Shown here piece after piece: positions 1,118 through 13,195 of a stretch of 40,512 bases of DNA. The stretch's first letter is position 1; each line of letters begins with the position of its first letter. The stretch lies in contig JBEBHE010000003.1 in NCBI GenBank assembly GCA_040081205.1, positions 1 through 40,512 of the forward strand, given 5' to 3'. The stretch comes from Burkholderiales bacterium (GTDB lineage Bacteria > Pseudomonadota > Gammaproteobacteria > Burkholderiales > SG8-41). The notes under the pieces were generated by a model. It searched no databases, was not told the origin of the DNA, and saw nothing but the letters and a program-made list of their open reading frames with translations. The position numbers and the translations under genes were made by a program.

Positions 1118-1452
1118 ACCCGTCAGTCTCTTGGTTACACGATGAATACTAACGTTCTGTCGCCACAATGGCAACTTTGCGCGCTGCGCAACGCATACCT
1201 GCGACGATAGGTGCAGCAAATTCGCACCACAAGCGCTGATTGCAGAAATAATTCCGCATCCTTTGGCCCAGATGACATGCCACGTTCGGCGGCAAACTAA
1301 TAGTGACAACAACAGTTGGCGCAGACCAACGCAAATAGGTAAGCATCGGCCCAACTATTCTCGTCACTACGCTGACAAGGGACTTGTCACGCGAGCATTG
1401 GTGAATGCCGCGCGCCGCTGTTGCAAAAATATTTATCTATTTCGCATTTTCT

Positions 1453-1670
1453 TTGAAACTTTTTTCCGGCGCATCGTCATAGCGGCAATTGCGGGGTATG
1501 TTTTATTTTTGCTCCGCATACTCTGTGACGGATAAAGGACTTCTTTGGACGTCACTAGACAGCACTGGATTATCGGTGGCTTCGTCAGCCCGTTTGATCC
1601 GCTTCAAGCATCACCCGTAGCACCGCGGCACCAAAACCGGACAAATCTCCTGAAAGCCGGTGGCCGCAAG
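1453..1670 (+). repeat. Structured direct repeat, copy 1 (core 1561-1670)
   Basis: Core aligns to 9944-10052 with 7 substitutions + 1 indel; 1453-1518 aligns to 9864-9931; extra hairpin GTGACG/CGTCAC at 1526-1555. Confidence 0.95.
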
Positions 1671-3336: not shown

Positions 3337-4572
3337 ATGACTGCACCACTATTGCTTGCCTGGATCTGTGCTGCGCTACTGCTGCAGGTGGTGGCGGGGA
3401 TAAGCGTGGCCGTTTGGCGACAGCATCGCGCTCCGAAAAAACCATCAGACACCGTGCGCGACTTACATTCTCCGTTGGCGTCAGGCGCTTGGATTGGATG
3501 GCGCGAATTCCGTGTTGCGCGCCGTGCATTCGAGGACGAGGTTCATTCGCAGTGTTCTTTCCATCTCGAACCGGTTGATGGTATCGAGTTGCCGCAGTTC
3601 AAACCGGGACAATTCCTCACATTTCAACTTGCGGTTGGGGACGACGCTCAGGCACGCACCATCGTCCGCTGCTACTCGCTCTCCGACCGGCCAGCGCCGG
3701 GCGGCTACCGTGTCACTATCAAGCGCGTGCCTGCGCCAGTAGATCGACCGGATCTGCCTCCGGGCGCATCCTCCACGCACTTTCATGATCGAATACACGA
3801 AGGTGACATCCTCAGAATCAAAGCTCCATCAGGACATTTCCATATCGACGACGATGCAAAGGTGCCAGTGGTGCTTATCGCTGGCGGCATAGGCGTTACG
3901 CCCATGATGAGCATGCTACGCTGGTGCCTCGATGAGCAGCCAGAGAGAACCGTTCACCTCTACTATGGACTGCGACACGGCGGGGAAGAAGCATTCAAGA
4001 CACTTCTCGAATCCTTAGCCGCAAGCCACCCTCGGTTCCATCTGAACGTAGTCTACAGCCGCCCCGGCGTTAACGACGTCCAAGGCCGCGACTACCAACA
4101 CGCAGAGCACGTCAACATTGACCTGTTGCGTCGAACCTTGCCTCACGGCAGGCATCAGTTCTATGTCTGCGGCCCGACCGCGATGATGGAGAATCTGGTC
4201 CCTGCAATCGTCGCGTGGGGCGTGCCGGAACAGGATATTCACTATGAGGCGTTCGGCCCGGCGTCCGTGCATCTGAATCATGCGGCTCACACAACATCAA
4301 TCAACTACACCTCAACTCCGGTTGAGGTGCGATTTGAGCGTTCGGGCCGCACCTTACTGTGGGACGGGCAGGATGGCAGCCTGCTGGAATTCGCAGAGCG
4401 TCACGGGGTTCCAGTGGATTCCGGTTGCCGGGCCGGCAGTTGTGGCAGCTGCGAAACCAGGCTAATCGCGGGAACCGTGCGCTACGTGAAAGCGCTCGAT
4501 CATGACATCACGCCGGGGCATTGTCTGCTGTGCATGGGTATCCCAACTTCCGCCATGGCGTTGGAAGCTTAA
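3337..4572 (+). CDS. Membrane-anchored FAD/NAD(P)H oxidoreductase with C-terminal 2Fe-2S ferredoxin
   Basis: N-terminal TM helix, RCYSLS (FAD), GGIGVTP (NAD), YVCGP, EAF, CRAGSCGSC...C. Confidence 0.9.
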   Translation: MTAPLLLAWICAALLLQVVAGISVAVWRQHRAPKKPSDTVRDLHSPLASGAWIGWREFRVARRAFEDEVHSQCSFHLEPVDGIELPQFKPGQFLTFQLAVGDDAQARTIVRCYSLSDRPAPGGYRVTIKRVPAPVDRPDLPPGASSTHFHDRIHEGDILRIKAPSGHFHIDDDAKVPVVLIAGGIGVTPMMSMLRWCLDEQPERTVHLYYGLRHGGEEAFKTLLESLAASHPRFHLNVVYSRPGVNDVQGRDYQHAEHVNIDLLRRTLPHGRHQFYVCGPTAMMENLVPAIVAWGVPEQDIHYEAFGPASVHLNHAAHTTSINYTSTPVEVRFERSGRTLLWDGQDGSLLEFAERHGVPVDSGCRAGSCGSCETRLIAGTVRYVKALDHDITPGHCLLCMGIPTSAMALEA

Positions 4573-6124: not shown

Positions 6125-8905
6125 TTGTGTGCCGGCCGAGGCAACCACGCATTCGCACTTGACAAGGCTTCGGCAGTGAAACCCGTCGCAGCGCCCTTAG
6201 CACCGCACACGGTACCCGTCGAGGCTATTGTGGCAGCCTTGAATGTGCGTCCCGATGCCGGCTTGCAGAGCGGCCAGGCCGCAGAGAGATTGGCGCAATT
6301 CGGCCCGAATCAGTTGCCGGTTACTCCACCACGATCACCCTGGCGCGTTTTGTTCGTCCAGTTCAAGGGGGTCATGATTGTTATCCTCTTCGGCGCAGCA
6401 CTATTGGCGGCCCTTGTGGGCAGCTACAAAGACGCGCTGGTCATTCTGGCGGTCATCGTAATCAACGCATTCGTGGGCTTTTACCAGGAATACCGAGCAG
6501 AGCGCAGCCTTGACGCCCTTAAGTCGATGTTGCCCGTCAAGGCACGCGTGCGTCGCGATGGCAGCAGTCATGAGATTCGCGCCGACGCCCTGGTTCCCGG
6601 CGACATGCTGCTACTCGAGGCGGGGGACAATGTGGCTGCCGACGGACGCATCGTCATGGCAGCAGGTGTCGAAATCGACGAATCCGCATTGACGGGGGAA
6701 TCGCTGCCTGCAAGCAAGCAGATTGCGCCGCTGGCAGCGGCGACTGCGCCCCTCGGCGACCGTAGCAACATGGCTTACATGAACTCCTTGGTCACACGTG
6801 GCCGCGCCGAGATGGTGGTCACGGCCACTGGCTCTCGCACCGAGATGGGGCGCCTCTCTCTGGAATTGGCGGCTACCGTAGAAGTGCCAACCCCCTTGCA
6901 GAAGCAACTCGACCAACTGGCCAAGCGCCTGGGTGCAATCGCCTTGGTTCTGGTAGCACTGTTGTCCCTGATGCAGTATCTGCGCGGTGCCACGATCGTT
7001 CACATCATGCTGGATGCGATCGCGCTGGCCGTTGCTGCGATGCCTGAAGGGTTGCCAGTCGTGGTGACCGTCACGCTGGCCTTGGGCATGCATAAACTGG
7101 CCCGACAGCATGCAATCGTCAAGCGTCTCGCCAGCGTAGAGACATTGGGTTGCACGACGGTGATCTGTTCCGACAAGACCGGGACGCTGACTCTCAACCA
7201 GATGACGGTGAGGACCGTCTGCTACGAGGGCAGGTCGTTCGAAGTGTCCGGAGAAGGCTATGCCACGAACGGCTCGATCACTGATCTCATGGGCCATACC
7301 GCCCTAACCGACTTCAATGCATTGCTGGTTCCAATAGTGGCTTGCAACGACAGCCGCATCGTCTACAACCACGGTGATGACGCAAAAGTCGTTGGCGACC
7401 CCATGGAGGCCGCGCTGCTTGTGCTGGCAGCTAAGGGCGGCGTCGTGCGTGATGATGTCGAACGCGCCTTGCCACGCTTGGCAGAGTTTCCCTTCGATTC
7501 CGCGCACAAGTTCATGGCCACCTTCCACGACGACGGACATGAGGTGAAGGTGTTCGTCAAGGGCGCGCCGGATGTGCTGCTTGCACACTGCACCAGTTGG
7601 CGCTCCGTAGGCACAGAGCAGCCACTGGACGAGTCGTGCCGGCAGCGAATCGACGCAGACTACCAAGCACTTGGCCAGCGGGGCTTGCGTGGGCTGCTGA
7701 TTGCGTCGCGCACGGTACCATCGACCAGCTTCGATGCGACAAAGGATCTGTCCTCCTGGATCGATGAGTTGTGCTTTATCGGACTCGTCGGCCTGATGGA
7801 TCCGCCGCGCGCCGAAGCGAAGCAGGCTATCGCCGAATGCGGGCGGGCGGGAATTGCCGTGAAGATGATTACCGGTGATCATCAGACTACCGCTACTGCA
7901 ATTGCAGCGGAACTGGGATTTGTGGGGCGCACCGTGTCGGGCGCCGAACTCGACCGTATGTCTCCGGAGCAACTCGCAGCCGTCGTTAACGACGTCGCCG
8001 TGTTCGCGCGAGTGACGTCTGGCCACAAGGTGGCCATCGTGAGGGCGTTGCAGACCAACGGCCATGTTGTCGCAATGACGGGTGATGGAGTCAACGATGC
8101 GTCCGCAGTAAAACAGGCTGACATTGGCATCGCCATGGGGATCAATGGCACGGCGGTTGTAAAAGAAGCTGCCACCATGGTGCTGACCGATGACAACTTC
8201 GCTACTATCGTCACCGCAGTCCGGCACGGACGCACCCTGTACGACAATATCTTGAAGTTTGTACGCTTCCAACTCTCGACGACGATCGGCGCGATCTTGA
8301 CCGTGTTCATTGCACCGCTTTTGGGCCTGCCCGAGCCGTTTACGGCACTGCAGATCCTGTGGGTCGCAATTATCATGGACGGGCCGCCCGCTGTCTCTTT
8401 GGCACTCGACTCCGCACGCCCGGGCATCATGGACGAGCCGCCGCGCCCGCGTGCCGAACCGGTTCTACCCCTGAGGCGTATAGCACGCGTTTTTGCCTAC
8501 GGTGCCACAATAGCAGCGGGCACGTTGACGGTGCTCTATTATGGGTTGCAGACAGGGGCCCAGGACCGCGCCTTAACCTTGGCTTTCACGACCTTTGTGC
8601 TGTTTCAGTTCTTCAACGTGTTCAATGCTCGCAACGAAGCGGGATCGGCATTCAACGCGCAATTGTTCCAAAACAGGATGCTGTGGTTTTCACTCGCCGG
8701 CACTTTAGCCCTTCAGGCGCTTGCGGTGCACTGGGCGCCGGCTTCAACGCTCTTTGGAACGACAGGCATGGCTTTGGAAGACTGGCCGATGGCCATCGCA
8801 GTTGCCTCTTCGGTGCTAGTGTTTGAAGAGGTACGTAAGCTCGGATCGCGCGCTTGGCGGTCATGGCAGCGACCGCACCTGAAGATTTCCAAGGCTGTCA
8901 CCTGA
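6125..8905 (+). CDS. Cation-transporting P-type ATPase (P2-like)
   Basis: TGES, PEGLP, DKTGT, KGAP, TGD, GDGVNDA motifs; start uncertain (GTG 6125 or 6176). Confidence 0.95.
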
Positions 8906-9088
8906 GGCGACTACTGAGCTGTGTTGACGTCGTATATTCGCCGGACTCGTATCACATTCATTCCATTCTAACGCAAGCGTGCGCCTGCCGCCGAGGGCTC
9001 ACTGGTACAGCAGAGGCGCGGCGGTATGTTGGGCGCCCGACTCTCGGTCGCGCACGCGCGTCGTAACGTGGGCAGACTAGAAACGAAG

Positions 9089-9364
9089 TTACGGACGTCG
9101 ACGCCGAGCGACTAGCCGCAAGGGTATGTTCTCCACATCAAATCCTATCTCCGTACGTCCGGATTTTTCATACTGGAACCGCATGGCATCGACAGATCCG
9201 GTTGGTTTTTCTGGGTCACCCCACACCTGAAGTACCTCTTTGTAAAGTTGCCCGTTGAGATCGCTGAGCAATAGCCTGAAGTGAATCTCGAACCGCGTCG
9301 ATCGTGAACCCACATCGTTAAGGTCTGACTGCGGTTGTCCAATGACTGCTTTGTGCTGCCCCAA
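9089..9364 (-). CDS. Hypothetical protein or gene fragment
   Basis: 91-codon ORF with protein-like composition and TTG start; no recognisable motif; may be part of a degraded gene extending to ~9635. Confidence 0.3.
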   Translation of the reverse strand: MGQHKAVIGQPQSDLNDVGSRSTRFEIHFRLLLSDLNGQLYKEVLQVWGDPEKPTGSVDAMRFQYEKSGRTEIGFDVENIPLRLVARRRRP

Positions 9365-9863
9365 TGCAAAATAAATGGCTCCTCAGGTTCGCGATTTCTT
9401 GTTCAATTTCTGTGAAGCTACCGCTCTAAACAAGAAATACTGATTTTCGTCGATGCGGATTTTGGAGGACCGCCATTGCGTTAAGCAGTCATTGTCGTTC
9501 GACTTAACCGTAATCACGTCGATATGGAAAGCTGTCTTCGTCTTCGCGAATTGGCGACAGACTGCTAGGGGTAGAAAGGACTCATCCAGAATTTCCGTTT
9601 GCTGTCATTGAGATTTCTCGTAAGCGGCCACTCATTTTCCTTTCACGCAGCCGTTCAAACTAGCAAGGCGGCTCGGGAGTTGTTTCTGGAAGTTTGGCAA
9701 ACTTGGCATCTTCATGGCGCAGCCATTCTGATTTCCTTCGAAGCAGACGCCCATCCCGAGCCACGGGCTTAGACGGACTGTTCGCAGTGCGAACAGTCGT
9801 TTGGCGGTTAAACTTAAGAAAATAATTCTCGTCGAACAGACCAAACCCATGAATCATATGTCA

Positions 9864-10052
9864 TTGAAACTTTTTTTCTGGCGCAAAGTCAAAGCGGCAA
9901 ATGCGAGAAAGATTATTTTCGTGGTCTCGCACAACCAGTGGATAGCACCGGATTATCGGTGGCTTCGTCAGCCCGTTTGATGCGCGTCAAGCATCGCCGT
10001 AGCACCGCAGTATCAAAACCGGACAAATCTCCTGAAAGCCGGTGGCCGCAAG
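9864..10052 (+). repeat. Structured direct repeat, copy 2 (core 9944-10052)
   Basis: Matches copy 1; the last 39 nt are identical and similarity ends abruptly after GGCCGCAAG. Confidence 0.95.
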
Positions 10053-10435
10053 GTCTGGAGGTATTGGTAAGAAATGCCCCTCGCGTATTTTCGCGTTTGG
10101 CACAAGCAGCACGTTAAGTCAGACTTACCCGCATGTAGATTTGCGCATGCGGGCACTACGTTAAGTTGGCAGTCTGCCCGCGCCTCTCCGGTACGGGCAT
10201 CCGTAAGCACCGCTTGGTACCACGTTAGCGGCACCCCATCGCACCCAGCGCCAGCAGCTGGCGGAGTCGATCGCCTTCGATCGTCCGTTCGCTGCGCCAG
10301 GGTTCCACGTCAAGTTGCGCCAGTCATCTGGGCCAGCGCGCGTCGTAACTAGATAGCGCCAGCTGCTAGTGACGACGCGCGGAATCTCTGCGTCATCAAG
10401 CATTTAAGTAGTGGTTTTTGTAATGACCGTCAGTA

Positions 10436-10735
10436 GTGATAGGCCGTTCTGGCCCATCACATCGTAAGGAACCGTGCAATGCGGTTCGTCCCAGCCCTCC
10501 TATGGGCGTCTAGTACCGCGCCTCCCTGGCGCAACCCGTGAGTCCGGGTAATGACTCAGCGATGGTCAGCAACTCCAACAGGAGGCGCCATCGATGCCAA
10601 TGCCGTGTCGGGCAGGCAAGCAGCAAAACAACGACACAAACCGGGAGTGGTGTCCCGAGGTCCCTCGTAGCGCTCCCATGCCAAGGCATGGAGCCGGACA
10701 GTAACACTTACCTGACAAGCGTTACACACCGACAC
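10436..10735 (+). ncRNA. Putative structured RNA/leader upstream of Integrase_1-type recombinase
   Basis: At least 9 consecutive hairpins read by eye, some with plus-strand G-U pairs; no credible ORF; no family recognised. Confidence 0.45.
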
Positions 10736-10755
10736 AATTTGACGAAAGGAATGCA

Positions 10756-11622
10756 ATGAAGGACCTGAACTACGAACTGAAATTGCTGTGCCAGCGTAAC
10801 CGCGACGGCAGCTACGCCACGCAACATGCGCGGGAGGACATCCTGACCCAGATCGCGAATCAGCTGCATGCACAGGGGTTCAAGGACATGAAGGCGACCA
10901 GCTTAAAGCCCAAGCACGTGACCTCGCTGGTGGAGCACTGGAAATCGCAATCACTGTCTGCTGGGACGATCAAGAACCGGATGACGGTGCTGCGATGGTG
11001 GGCGGAGAAAGTAAACAAGGAGAATGTAATGGCGCAGGACAACGATAACTACGGTATCGCAAGACGAACATACGTCACTAACCTCAATCAGTCCCGGAGC
11101 CTTACAGCCGGTGATTTAGCCAAAGTGACTGATCCGTACACTCAGCTATCACTGAAACTGCAGGCCGCGTTCGGCCTGCGGCGCGAAGAATCCATCAAGA
11201 TCCGTCCGGAATGGGCAGACGGGAGTGACCGGATCACGCTTCAGGCAAGCTGGACCAAAGGCGGTCGGGAACGGGAAATCCCCATCCGAAATGAACAGCA
11301 GCGAAACGTGCTGAACGAAGCCAAGCAACTGGCGGGCAAGGGAAGTCTGATCCCTTCAGACAGAACTTATGTTCAGCAACTGCAACGCTTCAAGTCGCAG
11401 TGCCAAACCGCCGGCATCTGGCATGTGCATGGCCACCGCCATCATTACGCACAAGACCGATACCGGGAACTGACCGGCTGGCTTTGCCCAGCACAGGGCG
11501 GGCCTACGTCCAAGCAATTGTCGCTGGAACAGAAGTGCCTGGATCATAAGGCGCGACTCACCATCAGTAAGGAGCTAGGGCACGGGCGCGTGAACATCGT
11601 ATCGGTCTATTGCGGCAAATAA
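10756..11622 (+). CDS. Tyrosine recombinase, Phage_int_SAM_2 + Integrase_1 type
   Basis: N-terminus 'NRDGSYATQ...LKPKHV...GTIKNRMTVLRWW'; catalytic R (FGLRREES), K (TKGGRER), HxxR (HGHRH), H (LGHGR), Y (VSVYCG); RBS AAAGGA. Confidence 0.9.
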   Translation: MKDLNYELKLLCQRNRDGSYATQHAREDILTQIANQLHAQGFKDMKATSLKPKHVTSLVEHWKSQSLSAGTIKNRMTVLRWWAEKVNKENVMAQDNDNYGIARRTYVTNLNQSRSLTAGDLAKVTDPYTQLSLKLQAAFGLRREESIKIRPEWADGSDRITLQASWTKGGREREIPIRNEQQRNVLNEAKQLAGKGSLIPSDRTYVQQLQRFKSQCQTAGIWHVHGHRHHYAQDRYRELTGWLCPAQGGPTSKQLSLEQKCLDHKARLTISKELGHGRVNIVSVYCGK

Positions 11623-11808
11623 AAAATCGTCCTGTTTAACTGTAAATACTATTTACACGCGAAGTCGATGCGATACCAGCAAGCGGAAGGTACTGGAGCG
11701 TTTTCCACGGTGGCGGGCGGGCGGCGCCCTACTCGCACGCAAAGCCCGGCGCGGTGGGAAACGCCAACTATTACGCGCGATGTGGGAATTCCAAGTCACC
11801 TGTGAAGT

Positions 11809-12153
11809 ATGAACACCGACCCTGAAAGCGACGAGCGCTTGCCCCTGCCAGTGCGCCGCTGCCTGACCAAGGAACAGGCGGCGGATTACTTGGGCATCGG
11901 CGTAACGCTACTACTTCAGTCGGGGCCACCGGCAATCAAGATTGGCCGGCGTTCGATTTGGGATGTCATTGACTTGGATGCGTGGCTGGAAGAATATAAG
12001 GGCCGAGGGCGGGCCAGAAAGGAGACTTTATGGCCCGTGAAAGCGGACTCTACCGGCGGCGAGACTCGCGCTACTGGTGGATCGATGTTGCATTACCGAA
12101 CGGCCGACGCTTATGCCAAAGTACTCGGACTGAAGACCGAAAAGAAGCGCTAG
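11809..12153 (+). CDS. Excisionase/AlpA-like HTH protein
   Basis: 'LTKEQAADYLGIG...IKIGRRSIWDVIDLDAWLE' pattern; overlaps the integrase start by 124 bp. Confidence 0.7.
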   Translation: MNTDPESDERLPLPVRRCLTKEQAADYLGIGVTLLLQSGPPAIKIGRRSIWDVIDLDAWLEEYKGRGRARKETLWPVKADSTGGETRATGGSMLHYRTADAYAKVLGLKTEKKR

Positions 12154-13094
12154 CCTTAATTGCCAAGCTCAAAAGCGAAGCATTCAGGCAAGCGCATTTT
12201 GGCGTAAAGCCCAAGCGTTCATGGCAGGAAGCCGTAGTCCGGTATCTCGAAGTAAAGGCCTCGCTTAGAAGCATTGGAGATGTAAAACGTATCTGCCGAA
12301 TCCTTGATCCAGTACTCGGTAAAAAGTACTTAAACGATATCGACGGGGATATGGTTTGGCAGGTATGTGAGCGGTTGTTACGCCGGGGAATTAAACCGGC
12401 CACTGTGAATCGCTATCTTGCAACCATCCGCGGCATTCTGCGGATGGCACGGGATGAATGGCAGTGGATCGACAACCATCCCAAAATCCGATTGCTTCCG
12501 GGTGAGGTGGAGCGTGACCGATGGCTTACGAGAGATGAGGCAGCCCGCTTGATCGCGGCCTGTCCTGCTCACTTGGCAGCCATCGTGCGCTTCGCCCTGG
12601 CGACAGGGTGCCGCGCTTCGGAGATTACCGGGTTGGAATGGCGTCGGGTGGATTTGGATCGCCACACGGCATGGCTAGACCATACCAAGAATGGCACGCC
12701 GAGAGGCGTCCCGTTGAATCGAGATGCGGTTGCCGTCTTGGAAGCGGAGCAAGGCAAGCATCCGGTTTATTGCTTCACCTATCGAGGCGCGCATTTTTCC
12801 GGCGCAGTGGGTAACTCGGCATGGTATGAAGCGGTAAAACGGGCGGAGCTTGGAAACTTCCGATTTCACGATTTGCGGCACACTTGGGCCTCATGGCATC
12901 GTCAGTCGGGAACATCGACGGATGAGCTAAAAGACTTGGGCGGCTGGAAGTCGCGTGTGATGGTGGATCGTTACGCCAAGTTTGCCACTGAGCATTTAGC
13001 GGTGGCGGCAGCCCGGATTGAATCGGGCCTGTCGGGCGCAAACGTAGGAAATGTTCTACGTTTTCCCTACGGTGGTGAAATGAAGTTAGGCTGA
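12030..13094 (+). CDS. Phage-type tyrosine integrase (island integrase)
   Basis: TGCRASEI, TKNG, FHDLRHTWAS, GGWKS, RYA; RBS AGGAG; adjacent to the tRNA 3' end. Confidence 0.95.
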   Translation: MARESGLYRRRDSRYWWIDVALPNGRRLCQSTRTEDRKEALALIAKLKSEAFRQAHFGVKPKRSWQEAVVRYLEVKASLRSIGDVKRICRILDPVLGKKYLNDIDGDMVWQVCERLLRRGIKPATVNRYLATIRGILRMARDEWQWIDNHPKIRLLPGEVERDRWLTRDEAARLIAACPAHLAAIVRFALATGCRASEITGLEWRRVDLDRHTAWLDHTKNGTPRGVPLNRDAVAVLEAEQGKHPVYCFTYRGAHFSGAVGNSAWYEAVKRAELGNFRFHDLRHTWASWHRQSGTSTDELKDLGGWKSRVMVDRYAKFATEHLAVAAARIESGLSGANVGNVLRFPYGGEMKLG

Positions 13095-13119: not shown

Positions 13120-13195
13120 TGGTGGCCAAGGGCGGAATTGAACCACCGACACACGGATTTTCAGTCCGCTGCTCTACCAACTGAGCTACTTGGCC
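13120..13195 (-). tRNA. tRNA-Phe (GAA)
   Basis: GGCCAAGTAGCTCAGTTGGTAGAGCAGCGGACTGAAAATCCGTGTGTCGGTGGTTCAATTCCGCCCTTGGCCACCA: 76 nt cloverleaf, GAA anticodon, encoded CCA. Confidence 0.98.

Follow-up and report, generated by a model that had tools for sequence, protein, structure and literature searches.

In a Burkholderiales bacterium, the gene of an Integrase_1 tyrosine recombinase is preceded by a large non-coding element, and very probably this element is genuine, structured and under selection, and belongs with the Integrase_1 module. The DNA that we analysed, here called the window, is a stretch of 40,512 nt. Within it the element extends over approximately 9862-10740 (~850 nt here, 0.65-0.95 kb elsewhere), and the source genome contains three copies. 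RNA and gene form a module of ~1.9 kb between two copies of a 15-19-bp palindrome; one large Integrase_1 branch comes with a big folded RNA and a palindrome pair as a portable unit. An earlier note on this DNA, made from its letters without database searches, had described a 300-nt run of hairpins directly upstream of the recombinase. That run (10436-10735) is real and represents the 3' half of the conserved element, which reaches much further upstream than the note had it, to ~9862. The parts of the module are listed in Table 1; domain M3 as a whole covers ~10320-10740 (420 nt).

Table 1 Parts of the RNA-recombinase module and their positions in the window.
Feature	Position	Strand	Remarks
Left bounding palindrome CTGTTCGCAGTGCGAACAG	9778..9796		7-bp arms GTTCGCA/TGCGAAC; flanks copy A
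ECF/sigma-E-like promoter motif	9864..9893	+	TTGAAACTT, 16 nt, (G)TCAAA
RNA domain M1, 120 nt	9955..10075	+	Four helices (one GNRA-capped) and CCGG/CCGG pseudoknot; alignment A3
Variable linker M1-M3	10076..10319	+	Low conservation; only ~45 nt in loci such as L032
M3 5' part	10320..10432	+	Small hairpin CCAG/CTGG 10320-10331, near-invariant palindromic hairpin, variable hairpin
M3 near-invariant palindromic hairpin, 13-14 bp	10339-10352 with 10366-10379	+	8/13 pairs unvarying
M3a'	10433..10559	+	First five stems of the earlier note, including H-type pseudoknot 10534-10558; alignment A6
M3b, most conserved core	10560..10740	+	Covariance model R1 built on last 180 nt
M3b helices	10560-10594; 10605-10637; 10642-10657; 10660-10663 with 10696-10699; 10672-10694	+	Covariation
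M3b invariant motifs	CAGUAACACUUACC 10699-10712; ACACACC 10724-10730	+	Sequence conservation
Integrase_1 / Phage_int_SAM_2 tyrosine recombinase, 288 aa	10756..11622	+	Pfam
Right bounding palindrome CTGTAAATACTATTTACAC	11640..11658		Outer and centre bases as left copy; inner bases differ on both arms

The RNA is previously undescribed. Rfam 15 gave no match at E<=1 for window 8800-12200 and none at gathering score in five related loci (29,757 bases), and our literature search on the Pfam names, the invariant motifs, large non-coding RNAs with integrases and RNA-guided tyrosine recombinases returned no description of it. A blastn comparison of the element with plasmids also gave no match. No credible open reading frame is present at 9870-10755. 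A protein-coding reading of the element was considered and rejected, there being ~3 stops per frame in all six frames and no 3-base periodicity; the gap-run lengths modulo 3 were 1035/187/134.

To follow the element through related bacteria, we scanned GTDB genomes, which yielded 178 stretches encoding relatives of the recombinase, and kept the best 80. Conservation upstream of Integrase_1 homologues, one of the conditions that the earlier note had set, was borne out: among these best 80 of 178, the M3b covariance model R1 matched 70 of the 72 countable loci at E<=0.001, in every case on the strand of the gene and upstream of it (of the other eight loci, four had matches cut off by the locus end and four had <=35 nt upstream). 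The two remaining loci were L068, without a match, and L072, with a weak one (12.9 bits). Profile searches likewise placed the element upstream of the gene and on the same strand in loci with >=60% protein identity. The R1-matched loci include a Halieaceae-type clade of 55-59% protein identity, in which M3b ends at, or <=4 nt from, the ATG. M3b is all that is shared at this distance: R2, the model of M3a', had no match in loci of 55-59% identity, nor in the divergent copies of genome G006. Over all loci, the element is contiguous with the Integrase_1 ORF in ~90%.

Within the source genome, the gene has three paralogues: copy A in the window, copy B on contig C78 (78% amino-acid identity) and copy C on contig C215 (63%), and all three have kept the non-coding DNA upstream. 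A and B share 93% identity over the block 10316-10730, compared with 74% nucleotide identity for the gene; the high identity of M3 could in part be due to gene conversion within the genome. The distribution among other genomes is patchy. R1 matched 8 of 151 genomes in a sample of the order (with seven copies in G006 and four in G118) and 3 of 151 in a sample of the class. PF12835, in comparison, was present in 18 of the 151 genomes of the order sample. RNA and PF12835 occurred together in G000, G006, G089 and G137, and G015, G060, G072 and G118 (87-99% complete) carried the RNA without any PF12835 match. Strains in culture also carry the module, namely Thauera sinica CGMCC 1.15731, Pseudohalioglobus lutimaris HF004 and Parahaliea mediterranea DSM 21924, so that its function is directly testable.

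We then compared the proposed structure with that of the relatives. Folding energy separates the hairpin run only modestly from chance: the + strand of 10436-10755 folds at -119.7 kcal/mol against -106.4 +/- 5.9 for shuffled sequences (z -2.25; 4 of 100 as good), and the - strand reaches z -2.00. Judging from the aligned sequences, it is conservation, rather than folding energy, that lifts the hairpins above chance. All the inverted repeats that the earlier note listed are present in the DNA, and eight of its ten proposed pairings are kept and covary in relatives. These are the 10436-10460 stem, GAACCG/CGGTTC (10469-10487), GCCC/GGGC, GCGCC/GGCGC, CGATGG/CCATCG, CCATGCC/GGCATGG, the pairing of GTGTCG with 10632-10637, and the pairing between the loop of ACCCG/CGGGT and 10553-10558. 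The last forms a pseudoknot that reads GAGUC/GACUC in the window's clade and GAGCC/GGCUC in the main clade (variable pair CG:44, UA:3), and its enclosing CCC/GGG stem is 74% paired. The other two stems are not conserved. In place of GGGAGTG/CGCTCCC, relatives keep CGGGA/UCCCG (10642-10657) and GCUC/GAGC (10672-10694), and the site of GTAAC/GTTAC falls in an invariant unpaired motif. The second partner suggested for GTGTCG, at 10729-10735, exists only in the window's copy, so that the proposed switch is unsupported.

Compensatory change was assessed on hand-curated structures, counting pairs against 500 shuffles and against slid controls. In the MAFFT alignment of M3b (55 sequences), 96.0% of cells were paired and 12 of 44 pairs had changed on both sides (shuffle mean 8.0; 0/500 as high), with 92 changed cells against 26 in shuffles and 4-14 in slid controls. 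With 73 model-aligned sequences, including the distant clade, M3b had 95.2% of cells paired, 22 of 36 pairs changed on both sides (shuffle 15.4; 0/500) and 223 changed cells against 48 (slid controls 9-26), a result that is biased by construction towards the model's own structure. For M3a' (49 sequences), 87.5% of cells were paired, changes on both sides were seen in 14 of 37 pairs (9.3 in shuffles, 0/500 as high; 0-9 in slid controls), and 72 cells had changed against 24 (slid controls 0-22); for M1 (47 sequences) the values were 98.0%, 7 of 25 pairs (2.6; 0/500) and 27 cells against 9.8 (0-3). RNAalifold, applied to 55 M3 sequences, predicted 62 pairs, 22 of them with compensatory change; one long-range pairing among these, between the 5' end of M3 and GGACAG, was discarded in favour of GUCC/GGAC, which covaries.

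The pseudoknot of M1 covaries (pair 75-101 is GC:31, AU:8, GU:6), and the variants of the M1 hairpin loop (GCAA, GAAA, GCGA) all remain within GNRA. In a third candidate pairing, the invariant loop GUGGUG would bind the 3' tail ACACACC; both sides change in the related distant loci L070, L071 and L077 (GUCGUG with CACG), but not in L073. In the hairpin at 10339-10379, three of the 13 pairs have changed on both sides and eight never vary, and the variable hairpin that follows (~10380-10432) allows no column-by-column alignment. At window 10366-10445, and in relatives, a short motif, (A/C)GUGACG, has three direct copies; an inverted fourth lies in the 5' arm of the invariant hairpin. Since the motif recurs, this arm could pair with any of three partners, and the repeats may be either a switch or a repeated protein site.

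The tested helices contain 123 G.U cells and 75 A.C cells, a mild bias. The GNRA consensus and the promoter motif are, as sequence signals, stronger indicators of the strand than this bias. Together with the pseudoknots and the constant orientation relative to the gene, both also speak for action as RNA on the + strand; we infer that M1 and M3 belong to one molecule. These features bear on the alternative that the hairpins work only as DNA, as recombination or accessory sites in the form of attC-like folded single strands or protein-binding repeats, with no RNA involved. A GNRA consensus that holds on the + strand only, two covarying pseudoknots, invariant unpaired motifs, a promoter motif pointing into the element and the excess of G.U over A.C cells all argue against it, as does the fixed order of >15 helices, which is unlike cassette sites. 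On the other hand, the best fold match of the recombinase is an integron integrase on folded attC, the 13-bp hairpin (10339-10379) hardly varies in sequence, which would suit a protein site, GTGAC occurs three times directly and once inverted, and partial copies have breakpoints inside the element (window 1450-1670, L108 and the G006 loci). Weighing both sides, we consider a purely DNA-level role very unlikely.

The left end of the element carries a predicted promoter of the ECF sigma-E type. Of 28 aligned left ends, 26 have a GGAACTT-like box (TTGAAACTT here, 9864-9872), and all 28 have a GTCAnA-like box (9888-9893) 16-17 nt further on. The motif fits the sigma-E/AlgU class of ECF promoters, whose consensus is GGAACTT, 16-17 nt and a TCAAA-like box. 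A scan of the source genome with the motif returned only two sites, too few to outline a sigma-E regulon. When 9600-11900 was scanned for sigma-70-type sites and terminators, none was found on the + strand within the unit, and there is no terminator or sigma-70 site between element and gene. In one metatranscriptome run, four contigs of relatives fell on M1 and M3 (10016-10071, 10477-10705, 10516-10550 and 10628-10690); they are a weak hint only, because DNA can occur in such libraries. These contigs do not cover the ORF, which we counted as evidence of nothing.

To our knowledge, Integrase_1 is a widespread tyrosine-recombinase family that has never been characterised. Our literature search brought up only passing mentions of its domains (PMC9769806, PMC8371274), one of which places such a gene next to mcr-4.3 on a Shewanella plasmid (PMC9769806), and a tblastn search with Integrase_1 found it in 221 plasmid records. 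The 288-aa protein of the window passes both curated Pfam cut-offs for Phage_int_SAM_2 and Integrase_1 (PF12834, 5.1e-19, 69.1 bits, cut-off 22; PF12835, 1.4e-10, 41.7 bits, cut-off 23) and matches no further Pfam family. All six catalytic residues (R142, K168, H225, R228, H276, Y285) are invariant in 39 homologues and kept in 84. Its AlphaFold model (pLDDT 87.6) is that of a plain two-domain tyrosine recombinase with no extra domain; residues and modelled fold together place the protein in the tyrosine recombinase superfamily. The best fold match is the integron integrase IntI on folded attC (2a3v, E 3.8e-6) and the second XerH-difH, followed by Tn1549 Int, lambda Int and Cre, with TM 0.5-0.6 for IntI, XerH, lambda Int and Cre. 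No PDB entry matched the protein by sequence, and NCBIfam gave nothing specific, its integron-integrase model included.

The palindromes that bound the module have the form GT-N4-A-N-T-N4-AC, with 7-bp arms around one central base. Copy B is bounded in the same way (C78 5160-5178 and 3006-3024), and the 19-bp pattern has only four matches in the 4.7-Mb genome, all of them flanking module copies A and B. Among 70 fetched loci with enough sequence, 34 had the 15-bp motif 700-2000 nt before the ATG. A copy followed the gene within 250 nt in 29 of 87 loci, 14 of 67 had the motif on both sides, and there were 11 further matches in 457 kb; by these counts the motif class is enriched at module borders in related loci. 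The inner bases differ between clades on both arms (TAGC/GCTG, TCGC/GCGA, AAAT/ATTT).

Downstream of the gene lie an HTH_17 (AlpA-like) ORF, a P4-type integrase (12030-13094) and a tRNA-Phe (13120-13195, minus strand), which mark the region as the tRNA-proximal end of a genomic island. The cargo upstream comprises an MgtC/DUF4010 protein, a ferredoxin reductase, multihaem cytochromes and a P-type ATPase. In related loci the flanking genes vary (metal resistance, AbiE, restriction enzymes, transposases, DUF932), and the P4-type integrase is usually not adjacent. PADLOC gave no match. The HTH_17 ORF (11809-12153) overlaps that of the P4-type integrase (12030-13094) by 124 nt, and one of the two start codons is probably mis-set. 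The island of copy B (L089 on C78, 1584-5400) repeats the layout of the window, with tRNA-Met, P4-type integrase, HTH_17, Integrase_1 and RNA; its cargo is a CusCBA-type efflux system.

What does the RNA do? The earlier note had offered a cis-regulatory leader or a recombinase-associated cofactor or guide. A conserved, structured, recombinase-associated RNA on the strand of the gene is what we find, and this would fit either a leader or a cofactor; guide-like complementarity did not exceed controls in three tests, and the switch is not conserved. The reading that we prefer, while giving it slightly less than an even chance, is that the element is a cis-acting structured leader of the recombinase transcript that gates expression of the recombinase. 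We prefer it because of the ~90% contiguity with the ORF, the abutment of the start codon in the distant clade and three negative tests for guide-like complementarity. The element would be transcribed from the ECF-type promoter as the 5' part of the recombinase transcript, and the folded leader would act at the RNA level, chiefly in cis, setting the amount of recombinase after envelope-type stress and, in the window, the amounts of the downstream AlpA-like protein and island integrase as well. It would probably hide or expose the translation start and might bind the recombinase itself, with the palindromes as the likely DNA sites of the enzyme. Three further observations are relevant to a leader: there is no terminator before the gene, the alternative pairing near the start is not conserved, and six loci have a 0.3-0.9-kb insert behind M3. 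As a leader, the element would be among the largest and most ornate known from bacteria and would link envelope-type stress to island recombination.

The three tests concern a different possibility, in which the RNA, as a stable molecule acting in trans, would assemble with Integrase_1 and serve it as scaffold or specificity subunit for recombination, whether at the palindromes or at new sites, by analogy with the bridge or seek RNAs of IS110/IS1111. The layout of end, non-coding RNA, recombinase and end is that of IS110, and the RNA is large, has invariant unpaired motifs and is more conserved than the protein. We looked for guide-like complementarity. Stretches of at least 7 contiguous nt, complementary or identical, were no longer between the RNA and its own flanks (mean 8.7-9.4 nt) than between the RNA and the flanks of other loci (mean 8.9-9.4 nt), so that over 44 loci there is no excess above the cross-locus controls. 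The variable base of CACUnACC matched the palindrome arm in 15 of 16 cases for n=A and 11 of 15 for n=G, but in only 4 of 21 for n=U, and clade membership confounds the comparison. An excess of palindrome-arm 6-mers in the RNA was rejected as a signal, being due to the palindrome itself within the scanned span and to GTCAGC in one clade. The protein is moreover an ordinary two-domain tyrosine recombinase without an extra domain, and four RNA-positive genomes lack an Integrase_1 gene. Multiple copies and patchy occurrence (seven copies in G006; 8/151 and 3/151 genomes), copies that an insert with a terminator-like site separates from the gene, and a mini-element of RNA and palindrome without a gene (L105) would nevertheless suit a partner acting in trans. 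On balance we regard a trans-acting partner as unlikely. It is likewise doubtful that Integrase_1 proteins are RNA-partnered tyrosine recombinases, in which the RNA would be needed for, or direct, recombination at the palindromes and the capture of neighbouring cargo; if true, RNA dependence would be a first within the tyrosine recombinase superfamily, and the mobile module, self-contained as it is, would be new. An RNA that works with the enzyme would be a new principle for tyrosine recombinases and of interest for genome engineering.

The preferred leader reading must also accommodate copies that are separated from the gene. Inserts of 0.3-0.9 kb with GACTGCA repeats follow M3 in B78, L009, L010, L011, L013 and L106; in the first five they separate M3 from the Integrase_1 gene, and L106 has no such gene there. 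Each contains 5-9 GACTGCA heptamers with an 11-nt period (copy B, L089 on C78, ~3975-4235), an array that, by its sequence, looks like an iteron or centromere-like protein-binding array. Within the insert of copy B there is, in addition, a hairpin with a T6 run that resembles a terminator, a consensus match only. Among 17 copies that we fetched from seven other genomes, eight were without an adjacent Integrase_1 gene (L096, L101-L107 in part, and L110; L101 is cut off by the contig end). Of the solo copies, eight have a readable neighbourhood, and three of these face a convergent gene; hsdM-hsdS and a large serine recombinase are among the adjacent genes, as is a P4-type integrase on the opposite strand. 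L105 is a mini-element consisting of the RNA, ~130 nt and the palindrome, with no gene. The uncoupled and solo copies, together with the RNA-positive genomes lacking PF12835, count against a purely cis role.

The same copies raise the question of whether the element is an independent cargo RNA, or a portable promoter-leader cassette, that would serve the mobile element or any gene located downstream, with the recombinase as merely the commonest neighbour. Full-length, high-scoring copies (147-176 bits) in genomes without a PF12835 match (G015, G072, G118), solo copies ahead of hsdM-hsdS, a serine recombinase and other genes, and the element's own promoter motif are what such independence would produce. 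Against it stands the regularity at loci chosen by their protein, 70 of 72 of which carry the element adjacent to the gene and in its orientation, as well as the distant clade, where nothing or almost nothing parts M3b from the start codon; the solo copies sampled are few, and the three that face convergent genes would fit relics. We find independence from the recombinase improbable.

We also compared the module with known systems. The IS110 recombinase consists of a DEDD (RuvC-like) domain and a Tnp domain. The module resembles the IS110/IS1111 elements with their bridge RNA or seekRNA (PMC11208160, PMC11208158) in having a structured non-coding RNA between one element end and the recombinase gene and in being small, end-bounded, multi-copy and patchy. 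Unlike them, its enzyme is a tyrosine recombinase (Integrase_1), not of the DEDD or serine type, and so without the domains of IS110; its RNA is 3-5 times larger, and guide-like complementarity to ends or flanks was not found. Features shared with integrons are the small two-domain tyrosine recombinase with IntI on folded attC as its best structural match, the adjacent outward-reading promoter, the variable cargo alongside and the insertion at one hot spot between M3 and the gene. In contrast to integrons, the protein has no NCBIfam integron-integrase match, there are no cassette arrays among the neighbouring genes, the promoter faces towards the recombinase gene and not away from it, and the hairpins form one fixed, conserved architecture.

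Xer/dif-type sites (XerH-difH, the pdif modules of plasmids) have an 11-6-11 layout. Here, too, short palindromic sites bracket a module, and XerH on difH is the second-best fold match. The site of the present module differs in having 7-bp arms and one central base (15-19 bp), and the module differs in encoding the recombinase within itself and in having a large RNA as part of the unit. Among the large 'ornate' bacterial RNAs that reside in mobile DNA are ROOL, GOLLD and HEARO/omega RNA, HEARO being tied to one ORF. The element shares with them its size, many helices, pseudoknots, GNRA loops and residence in a mobile element, but matches none of these Rfam families and differs in taxa and in partner protein. 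Structured leaders of integrase and conjugation genes are similar in position, being on the strand of a recombination gene and immediately ahead of it, again without an intervening terminator; they measure 70-350 nt, whereas the element here has ~850 nt, two separable domains and persists without the gene.

Several partial copies were seen in addition. One lies in the window itself (1372-1670) and consists of a palindrome, CTGACAAGGGACTTGTCAC (1372-1390), a promoter motif (1454-1491) and an M1 that is cut after GGCCGCAAG (1670). Its part at 1450-1670 shares 92% identity with 9941-10053. The truncated copy is directed into the MgtC/DUF4010 gene at the 3' end of the latter, and together with the full copy it brackets 8.4 kb of metal/redox cargo. 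M3a-like pieces are found upstream of the promoter and M1 of the full element in L097-L100 (G006) and L108 (G089), which suggests, from their arrangement, tandem or nested partial copies with breakpoints inside the RNA gene. Finally, past the right palindrome, a GC-rich imperfect hairpin, GCGTTTTCCACGGTGGCGGGC ... GCCCGGCGCGGTGGGAAACGCC (window 11700-11775), is conserved between copies A and B.
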